A program made the translations under genes and the position numbers. DNA of 35,473 nt from a virus (lineage: Duplodnaviria > Heunggongvirae > Uroviricota > Caudoviricetes): the IMG/VR virus record IMGVR_UViG_2850773344_000008. One strand, 5' to 3'. The notes under the pieces are model-generated. The model made no database searches, was not told where the DNA came from, and saw only the letters and a list, made by a program, of their open reading frames with translations. How positions within the stretch are numbered: the first letter of the stretch is position 1; every line of letters begins with the position of its first letter. Shown one piece after another: positions 31,487 through 32,949 of the stretch.

Positions 31487-31685
31487 ATGGCAAAAAATGA
31501 TGCAGTAATACACGTACATACCCCGTTTGTGCTCACGCTTCCCGACGGTTCTCGGCGCGAGTTTGTTAAAGGCCGTCATGTTGTGGAGGAAGACGTTGCC
31601 ACGCACTGGTTCACTCGTGCGCACGCGGAAGTATCCGTTGGCAAAGCCACAGACGCGCGTAACGAGGTAAAAAATGCCAAAGAAT
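31487..31685 (+). pseudogene. small phage protein, 3' end replaced by IS600
   Basis: 66 native codons (MAKNDAVIHVHTPFVLTLPDGSRREF...), then reads into the IS600 terminus. Confidence 0.4.
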
Positions 31686-31728
31686 TGAGGTGTACTGGCA
31701 ATAGCGGACACTACCATTTGTTCTTTTT

Positions 31729-32547
31729 TTAAGCAGCCATCTGATGATATTTTTCCCTGAAGGCTGCCGGGGAGATATTCCCCAGACGAGAGTGACGACG
31801 CTGACGATTGTAGAAAATCTCAATGTATTCCCGTATTACTGAGATGGCTTCATCCCGGTTATTAAAACGATAGTGGCTCAGGCTCTCATTTTTCAGCGTT
31901 CCCCAGAAGCTTTCCATCGGAGCGTTGTCGTAACAGTTACCTTTACGCGACATTGATGTTTTCAGACCAGACTGCTCCTGTATGACCCGGTAATCGTATG
32001 CGCAGTACTGTGAACCTCGATCAGAGTGGTGGATTAGCCCGGCAGGTGGGCGCTGGCTCCTGAGCGCCATAAACAGGGCTTTACCTGTCAGCTCTTTTGT
32101 CATGCGCTCTCCCATGGCGTAGCCGACAATTTCGCACGTATAAACATCTTTGATGCCAGCGAGGTACAACCATCCCTCCTGTGTGGCAACATACGTCAGG
32201 TCCGCCACCCAGACCTGATTTGGTGCTGTAGAAGCGAACGTCTGGTTCAGCAGATTTGGCGCAACTGGCAGATTGTGGTTCGGGTTCGTAGTCGCTCTGA
32301 ACTTGCGTTTCTGCTTACAGCGTAGCCTCAGCTCCTTACGAAGACGTGCCAGTCGGTCACGACCAACGATGATGCCATTCTCTGCCAGCTCCGTCTGGAG
32401 CCGCCGGGTTCCATATGTTTCGCGAGTGCGGATATGTGCCACCTTAATCTCCAGTTTTAGCCGCTCATCACTTTGTTTTCTGTCTGAGGGTTCATGCTGT
32501 ACCCAGTTGTAATAACCGCTCCTGGATACACCAAATACCTGACACAT
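31729..32547 (-). CDS. IS600 OrfB
   Basis: 272 aa; three substitutions relative to copy 1. Confidence 0.9.
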   Translation of the reverse strand: MCQVFGVSRSGYYNWVQHEPSDRKQSDERLKLEIKVAHIRTRETYGTRRLQTELAENGIIVGRDRLARLRKELRLRCKQKRKFRATTNPNHNLPVAPNLLNQTFASTAPNQVWVADLTYVATQEGWLYLAGIKDVYTCEIVGYAMGERMTKELTGKALFMALRSQRPPAGLIHHSDRGSQYCAYDYRVIQEQSGLKTSMSRKGNCYDNAPMESFWGTLKNESLSHYRFNNRDEAISVIREYIEIFYNRQRRHSRLGNISPAAFREKYHQMAA

Positions 32548-32582
32548 CGCTTCAATGGGAAATTGTTGTCGCCATTGTTCGA

Positions 32583-32885
32583 TTAACGCGTATTTTTCAG
32601 CGACTCCTGTGCAAAATACGCTGTTGCTTTTTTTAATATATCGCGCTCAAGGCGAGCTTCATTTAACGCCTTACGCAGTTGCAGAATTTCAGATTCCAGT
32701 TCAGCCACCGTGCGGGAACCAGGAGTACCGAGCCCTTTTCTGGCGGCGGTAACCCATTGTCCTAAAGTGCCTTCAGGAAGGGATAATCGGGAAGCGCCTT
32801 CACTGATCGAAAGTTGATTTTCAAGAACCGTTCTGACAGCTTCGGCTTTGAACTCTTTAGAGTAACGTTGGGTTTTTCTGCTCAT
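32583..32885 (-). CDS. IS600 OrfA
   Basis: 100 aa identical to the other copies. Confidence 0.9.
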   Translation of the reverse strand: MSRKTQRYSKEFKAEAVRTVLENQLSISEGASRLSLPEGTLGQWVTAARKGLGTPGSRTVAELESEILQLRKALNEARLERDILKKATAYFAQESLKNTR

Positions 32886-32949
32886 TATTAGCTCCTTCTG
32901 ATGCCATTCTATTTCAGGAAGGAGTGTCCGTTAAACTCAGGCTATCTCA

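Follow-up and report, generated by a model that had tools for sequence, protein, structure and literature searches.

IS600 copy 3 as a probable recombination joint between a SEN34-like head module and a Mu-type remnant in a Shigella flexneri prophage island

Background

Insertion sequence (IS) copies drive deletions and rearrangements through recombination in Shigella (PMC7373316), and IS-mediated inversions have been described there as well, one of them ascribed to IS600 (PMC1550401). The DNA analysed here, referred to as the window, is a stretch of 35,473 nucleotides from a virus of the Caudoviricetes (IMG/VR record IMGVR_UViG_2850773344_000008) that carries three copies of IS600. The third of these, IS600 copy 3, lies between a phage head module and the early region of a Mu-type phage and is probably a hybrid element left behind by recombination between two IS600 copies in an ancestor of S. 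flexneri. The portions of the literature on IS rearrangement in Shigella and on SfMu that were consulted contain no account of this particular joint between a SEN34-like head module and Mu A.

Two groups of described phages correspond to the two sides of copy 3. The temperate myoviruses Escherichia phage vB_EcoM-611R5 (611R5) and Salmonella phage SEN34 share with the window a collinear portal-to-capsid module followed by an STY1053-family open reading frame (ORF), at 95 % nucleotide identity in the window. In contrast to these phages the window is devoid of all genes past codon 66 of the small ORF (neck, tail, baseplate and fibres) and its terminase, split by IS2, belongs to another type (36 % identity). 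SfMu, Mu and D108 have the same c, ner, A gene order with a divergent repressor, and the A fragment in the window is 97-98 % identical to theirs, but only about 3 kb of Mu-type DNA is left here, comprising the left end, c, ner and 544 codons of A. In the SfMu study most S. flexneri strains share Mu-hybridising bands, whereas a Mu mor-lys polymerase chain reaction product was obtained in only 38 of 194 (PMC4406740), in keeping with the absence of the greater part of Mu. The common Southern bands reported there probably correspond to the remnant described in this work. With respect to the IS600-mediated deletions and inversions of Shigella, both the element (1264 bp, orfA/orfB, DDE rve core) and the process are the same, with no mechanistic difference.

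Results

IS600 copy 3 is a complete element of 1264 bp on the minus strand (31686..32949), with the right inverted repeat (IRR) at 31686 and the left inverted repeat (IRL) at 32949. Its ends, TGAGGTGTACTGGCAATAGCGGACAC... and ...GTGTCCGTTAAACTCAGGCTATCTCA, form imperfect terminal inverted repeats of the 5'-TG...CA-3' type. The two-ORF organisation of IS600 is preserved: orfA (32583..32885, minus strand) encodes 100 amino acids (aa) with a helix-turn-helix domain (HTH_Tnp_1, Pfam E=1.5e-20), and orfB (31729..32547, minus strand) encodes 272 aa from its first ATG, with HTH_21 and the rve DDE core (Pfam rve E=1.1e-25; rve_3 and rve_2 were matched too). A run of seven A residues was read in the 3' part of orfA. 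Copy 3 is 99.1-99.3 % identical to RefSeq E. coli loci annotated as 'IS3-like element IS600 family transposase', and 5 bases distinguish it from copy 1. A private G>A single-nucleotide polymorphism (SNP) at IRL position 5 (window 32945; ..GGCTATCTCA) is kept in every strain examined, the IRL being TGAGATAGCC in copy 3 and TGAGGTAGCC in all other IS600 copies seen. The substitution might hamper recognition of that end by the transposase. The initial annotation assigned positions 31487-32949 to copy 3. The IS proper begins at 31686; at 31487 the small ORF starts with its ATG, and the interval begins there because this ORF, truncated by the IS, was included.

Target duplications made by IS600 are 3 bp long. 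Copy 3 is bordered by ...GCCAAAGAAT|IS|ATAAACCGTG..., i.e. by the triplets AAT and ATA, whose common part is a 2-bp AT only. These triplets were read identically in the initial annotation, and neither a 3-bp duplication nor a contiguous empty site was seen.

The left flank belongs to the head module of a SEN34/vB_EcoM-611R5-like prophage (26658..31445, plus strand), encoding the portal, a Mu-F-like protein, a DUF2213/Pa193_gp24 protease-scaffold, a cement protein and the major capsid protein, whose gene (30504-31445) was matched by Pfam Major_capside and by the PHROG major head protein. Window positions 26605-31685 are 95.2 % identical in nucleotide sequence to 611R5 (L001 17604-22686), the proteins of the head module are 87-100 % identical to their 611R5 counterparts, and the left flank is about 81 % identical to SEN34. 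The head module is followed by the 5' part of the STY1053-family small phage ORF (31487..31685, plus strand; phrog_6497). Alignment to the intact 611R5 ORF (L001 22488-22709) demonstrated that 66 of its 73 native codons are present; copy 3 lies 23 bp short of the end of the ORF and the last 7 codons are gone. The resulting fusion ORF (31487-31732) comprises these 66 codons and 15 codons inside IS600, and its 81-aa product, which carries the name of a phage protein of S. flexneri 2457T, was seen on 461 contigs. The uninterrupted 3' end, which the initial annotation had proposed to look for in relatives, is present in 611R5, where the ORF is intact with 73 codons and runs on as CAAAATCTGCC... 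(CAAAATC...) into a DUF4054 gene and then the tail genes.

The right flank begins with a truncated Mu/SfMu-type transposase gene A (32947..34581, minus strand), which retains 544 of 663 codons and has its TGA stop in the last 3 bases of IS600 (32947-32949). Window positions 32950-34413 are 97.7 % identical to SfMu 2900-1437 and 97-98 % identical to Mu and D108. The uninterrupted 3' end of A, looked for on the same suggestion, was found in the 663-codon gene of SfMu, and the breakpoint lies after codon 544; past it the intact gene continues as TGCTACACCC... in Mu and as TGCTACACC... in SfMu. In the fragment the Pfam domains HTH_Tnp_Mu_1, HTH_Tnp_Mu_2 and DDE_2 are present, the match to Mu-transpos_C breaks off at position 50 of the 61-position profile, and residues 545-663 are absent. 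The truncated protein is ABF02946.1 of S. flexneri 8401. Since A is deprived of its C-terminal domain, the Mu-type remnant is incapable of transposing.

Upstream of A the gene of a Ner-like early regulator (34556..34810, minus strand; Pfam HTH_35, E=5e-29; phrog_769 transcriptional repressor) and an intact gene of a Mu c-type repressor of 169 aa (34964..35473, plus strand, divergent from A and ner; Pfam HTH_Tnp_Mu_1; phrog_7148) are encountered. The blastn match to SfMu ends at 34413, and the c/ner DNA is unrelated to the immunity regions of SfMu, Mu and D108; the contrast between c/ner and A is typical of immunity-region mosaicism. The flank described initially as Mu-like is indeed of Mu origin and can be specified as essentially a Mu/SfMu A gene attached to a different immunity region. 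In the related locus L025 the Mu-type left end (5'-TGTATTGATTCACTTGAAGTACG...; ...GTACTTCAAGTGAATCAATACA) is intact, 82 % identical to SfMu 1-233, and adjoins codon 113/114 of the host gene dpiA, so the window and L025 together present the Mu arrangement of a divergent c, then ner, A and the left end against host DNA. No Mu sequence past SfMu position 2900 (right end, 5-bp duplication, gene B, late genes) was found in the window or in any related locus.

A tblastn search with all head-module proteins against SfMu gave no match at E<1e-3 and, judged by these comparisons, the flanks belong to two unrelated phage types, one 95.2 % identical to 611R5 and the other 97.7 % identical to SfMu. Their transcription is convergent, the plus strand encoding the head genes and the minus strand A and ner. 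The initial annotation was right in placing different phage types in opposite transcriptional orientations on the two sides of copy 3 and in regarding both genes as truncated by it, with breakpoints now located at codons 66/73 and 544/663. No reference phage in which the head module and the Mu A module are joined was found. Because the duplication is absent, both genes are truncated and the flanks are unrelated and contiguous in no reference, copy 3 is, in agreement with the initial annotation, not a simple insertion but must be the joint of an IS-mediated recombination.

As diagnostic markers of the two IS boundaries, the sequences of the truncated A protein and of the 81-aa fusion ORF were looked up by exact match. 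They co-occur in many megabase-scale assemblies, among them CP000266, CM001474, CP026788, CP026799, LR213452, CP007037 and CP033510, the records of junction-bearing assemblies being named S. flexneri 8401, M90T and 2457T, and CP000266 being S. flexneri 5b strain 8401 (PMC1550401). The fusion ORF occurs in 92 index blocks with a longest contig of more than 1 Mb. In all related loci inspected, mostly megabase-scale S. flexneri assemblies, the junction flanks are base-for-base identical. Both an assembly collapse across IS600 copies and a wrong base call hiding a 3-bp duplication, the two artefacts considered in the initial annotation, are thereby excluded. Short-read contigs break at the IS ends, as a repeat would make them. 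When the junction was compared by BLAST with 5,426 complete E. coli genomes, no genome covered more than 40 % of the query and the IS600 part alone was matched. Public S. flexneri genomes have contained the joint from the earliest sequenced ones onwards.

Other insertions in the window serve as controls. IS600 copy 2 (15829..17065, minus strand; 1237 bp, with a 27-bp internal deletion) is flanked by a perfect CAG/CAG and constitutes an internal control for simple insertion. The two IS2 copies, which are in direct orientation and 1 base apart in sequence, likewise lie between perfect 5-bp duplications, CTGAG/CTGAG at IS2a (5625..6955) and GCAAT/GCAAT at IS2b (24587..25917). Since these three elements keep perfect duplications, the missing duplication at copy 3 is informative, and so is that at IS600 copy 1 (2611..3874, plus strand), an inverted repeat of copy 3 which interrupts the 5' end of a tail-fibre-assembly gene (DUF4376) and has ATG and ATA at its borders. 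Copy 1 is a second rearrangement joint of the same island.

A complete cycle of insertion and deletion at copy 3 is seen in two sister strains. In L032 (UAUS01000007.1) an extra IS600 (L032 3329-4592) sits in the DUF2213 head gene 2.1 kb upstream of copy 3, in the same orientation and between perfect GAC/GAC repeats. L031 (UGYS01000001.1) carries a single IS600 (L031 6723-7986) bordered by GAC and ATA, which fuses the truncated DUF2213 gene directly to the truncated A; the genes for the cement and capsid proteins and the small ORF are no longer present. The L031 element is a hybrid with the IRL SNP of copy 3 and copy-3 alleles up to position 980, and because these alleles extend that far the crossover took place within the last ~280 bp. 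L031 is exactly what recombination between two IS600 copies in direct orientation produces, with L032 as the intermediate. The cycle yields the signature of the window junction, i.e. one IS, no duplication and two truncated genes, and thus supports recombination at copy 3.

Further events were observed elsewhere in the island. L017 is devoid of the 19 kb between the direct IS2 copies, and L033 of 1.48 kb adjoining copy 1, so that in the latter strain copy 1 (L033 12611-13874) joins window position 5358. The left flank of copy 1 is constant among strains and the sequence past its right end varies (in the window it joins 3875). In L034 (12611-16037) copy 1 joins a 0.9-kb recE fragment, beyond which lies another IS600, inverted and carrying the 27-bp deletion; the halves of a TAT/TAT duplication are distributed over these two inverted copies, a footprint left by inversion.

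Discussion

In the history that we propose for copy 3, a first IS600 would have inserted near the 3' end of the STY1053-family ORF in a SEN34/611R5-like prophage (target AAT) and a second one in gene A of the Mu-type prophage, in the same orientation as A (target TAT on the Mu strand), the Mu-type prophage itself having transposed into dpiA. Homologous recombination between the two copies would then have left one hybrid IS, in which the IRR keeps the head-module flank and the IRL the Mu A flank, at the cost of the phage tail genes, the 3' end of A, gene B and the remainder of Mu. The joint would afterwards have been fixed in S. flexneri. The likeliest route would be a direct-repeat deletion, to which somewhat the greater part of the probability within the recombination model is assigned; otherwise an inversion may have been followed by loss of the reciprocal joint. 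The initial annotation had offered an IS-mediated deletion or inversion, or a composite junction. The IS-mediated joint stands, with deletion favoured over inversion.

Searches for the missing parts are in keeping with this history. An exact-pattern scan for an IS end followed by any 3 bases and the 3' part of A or of the small ORF gave 0 matches in GTDB representatives, IMG/VR and JGI metagenomes, although the null in the GTDB representative set is weak as this set is probably without S. flexneri; the real joint, used as a positive control, was recovered from 3 IMG/VR contigs. Protein searches with the missing 118 C-terminal residues of A revealed no fragment that begins at codon 545 beside an IS, and the remaining fragments were unrelated to the breakpoint. 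One of the candidates, P0002, starts 3 nucleotides past the A breakpoint, but it lies at a contig end with no IS sequence and is best read as assembly branching in strains that contain both the remnant and a full Mu. With the 113 N-terminal residues of DpiA no 5' part of the gene joined to a Mu right end was detected in the protein search, and a 117-aa match was rejected as a frameshifted dpiA in ordinary E. coli. The downstream DUF4054 gene was found by protein search in intact phages of E. coli or metagenomic origin only, with no Shigella context. Taken as nulls for reciprocal products, these results favour loss of the missing parts, either by direct-repeat deletion or by an inversion whose reciprocal joint was later deleted.

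Several points weigh against the proposed history. The single ancestral insertions, AAT/AAT in the small ORF and TAT/TAT in Mu A, were found in no sequence; since neither is available, the two-step history is one that we infer. The SNPs of copy 3 are too sparse to reveal a mosaic. The searches for reciprocal joints covered species-representative genomes, virus-predicted contigs and gene-call databases and not whole S. flexneri chromosomes. Finally, K-12 homology rises on moving away from the island at both of its ends (798,583 at pgl and 654,201 at dpiA), and the IS600 inversion joint of the island may be copy 3, or equally copy 1.

The last of these points comes from the host context. The Mu-type left end adjoins dpiA (citB, response regulator) after codon 113, at K-12 654,200/654,201 (L025 10835-10860), a 100-aa C-terminal fragment of dpiA being left beside dcuC. 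Past this fragment the gene order of the related loci ascends in K-12 from dcuC via pagP and cspE as far as dacA. On the opposite side of the island some 900 bp separate ipaH from pgl, and the homology to K-12, which breaks off 3 bp short of the start codon of pgl (798,583), extends through ybhD to ybhC in descending K-12 order (L034 9107 is the left-end join and L025 10848 the right-end one). The two points that the island connects are thus 145 kb apart in K-12 and inverted in orientation with respect to each other, and its tail-fibre-assembly/ipaH end is inverted relative to the head module. Since the host flanks are inverted, at least one inversion joint (or a translocation with respect to K-12) has to lie within the island.

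If copy 3 were that joint, it would have arisen by recombination between inverted IS600 copies, and the reciprocal joint, with the tail genes, IS600, the 3' end of A, gene B, the rest of Mu and the 5' part of dpiA, would exist elsewhere or would have done so once. Such a locus is predicted to read ...GGCAGATTTTGATT|IS600|TATTGCTACACCC..., connecting the small-ORF remainder and tail genes through IS600 to the A 3' end and B, with the partner ends GGCAGATTTTGATT|TGAGGTAGCC... (small-ORF remainder, DUF4054) or ...ACACCTCA|TATTGCTACACCCTGG (A 3' part, B). The inverted link between pgl and dpiA, ~145 kb apart, speaks for this possibility, as do the arrangement of copy 1 (plus) and copy 3 (minus) as inverted repeats, the opposite orientation of the tail-fibre-assembly/ipaH end with respect to the head module, and the split TAT/TAT of L034, which is direct evidence of IS600 inversions in this island. 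We nevertheless consider it rather unlikely. The searches made yielded no reciprocal joint, no 3' fragment of A, no junction of the dpiA 5' part with a Mu right end and no downstream tail gene in Shigella, and copy 1 can just as well be the joint that the host flanks require. Pairing of the copy 3 flanks with those of copies 1 and 2 was tried and rejected: read in the orientation of the IS the flanks are ATG/ATA, CTG/CTG and TAT/ATT for copies 1, 2 and 3, respectively, without a match, so that an inversion between copies 1 and 3 in particular (ATG/ATA against TAT/ATT) does not pair. A one-step event, in which for instance an IS600 residing in Mu A attacked the small ORF by intramolecular transposition and caused an adjacent deletion or inversion without any second copy, appears decidedly unlikely, even though its product, a single IS between an old and a new flank and without a duplication, is the same in sequence as that of recombination and the copy 1 region, with a constant left and a variable right flank among strains, resembles nested adjacent deletions. 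IS3-family elements move by a copy-out-paste-in pathway via a circle and adjacent deletions are infrequent among them, which counts against a one-step event, and the sole deletion directly documented at copy 3, from L032 to L031, was a new insertion with GAC duplicated that was followed by recombination.

The two remaining explanations have almost no probability. A simple IS600 insertion into a naturally mosaic phage, or an assembly collapse across IS600 copies, could appeal to the multi-copy nature of IS600 and the breaking of short-read assemblies at it and to nothing more, while the duplication is missing, both genes are truncated and convergent, the modules are joined in no reference phage and the junction is replicated. 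That copies 1 and 3 make up a composite transposon which carried a 27.8-kb prophage segment into the Mu remnant is just as implausible. The segment is indeed edged by two nearly identical inverted IS600 copies, but the outer flanks, ATG and ATA, show no duplication and belong to unrelated genes (tail-fibre-assembly and Mu A), and the inner flanks are truncated phage genes. Recombination between two ancestral IS600 copies thus remains the preferred explanation of copy 3.

The event is standard, already known IS-mediated prophage erosion in Shigella, real, fixed in the lineage and ordinary. It matters little except for annotation: the ORFs of 81 and 544 aa result from truncation or fusion and are not genes, and annotation should not unite the head module with the Mu early region in a single prophage. 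Copy 3 provides a stable lineage marker for S. flexneri, and the locus, with both an intermediate strain and a deletion product at hand, is a clean example of the erosion of Shigella prophages by IS copies. The remnant may conceivably have been kept across S. flexneri as a fixed immunity module (intact c and Ner) against Mu-type phages of the same immunity, with the Mu insertion in dpiA and the IS600 recombination as a lineage-defining lesion that inactivates DpiAB and the citrate regulon. This is improbable; the facts behind it are the intact c and ner ORFs and the presence of the identical repressor protein in 6687 indexed blocks of the collection, and nothing further, and the wide spread of an identical repressor is equally predicted by neutral persistence in a young clonal species.

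Several minor observations concern the rest of the island. A full-length chromosomal ipaH gene (LRR_TTSS and NEL E3-ligase domains; window 1-1812) is located at its left edge beside the truncated tail-fibre-assembly gene and represents typical prophage-end cargo. The late region of the prophage is broken up at least five times. IS2b splits the large terminase gene into 23811-24602 and 25891-26658, a 282-bp 3' fragment of IS2 occupies 20414-20695, and an IS66-family element (ORFs of 224, 116 and 533 aa) and another IS3-family element are found at 17763-20382 and 20914-22162, between the lysis and terminase genes. The 27-bp deletion of IS600 copy 2 lies in orfB, is of in-frame length and has 9 bp of microhomology at its edges. 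The same variant occurs at another site in L034 and L017, and the deleted form has therefore spread or recombined.

The flank ATATGCTTTCC (window 3875 on) adjoins the right end of IS600 in the window and the left end in L034 (16038) and L017 (IS 134-1370; flank 1371). Because recombination cannot swap the IS end attached to a flank, this points to independent insertions in both orientations at one ATAT site or to an unexplained event. The target at the copy 1 site, GCATAT|TGGCTAC, resembles that in Mu A, GTTTAT|TGCTAC, and their likeness is a hint of a target preference.

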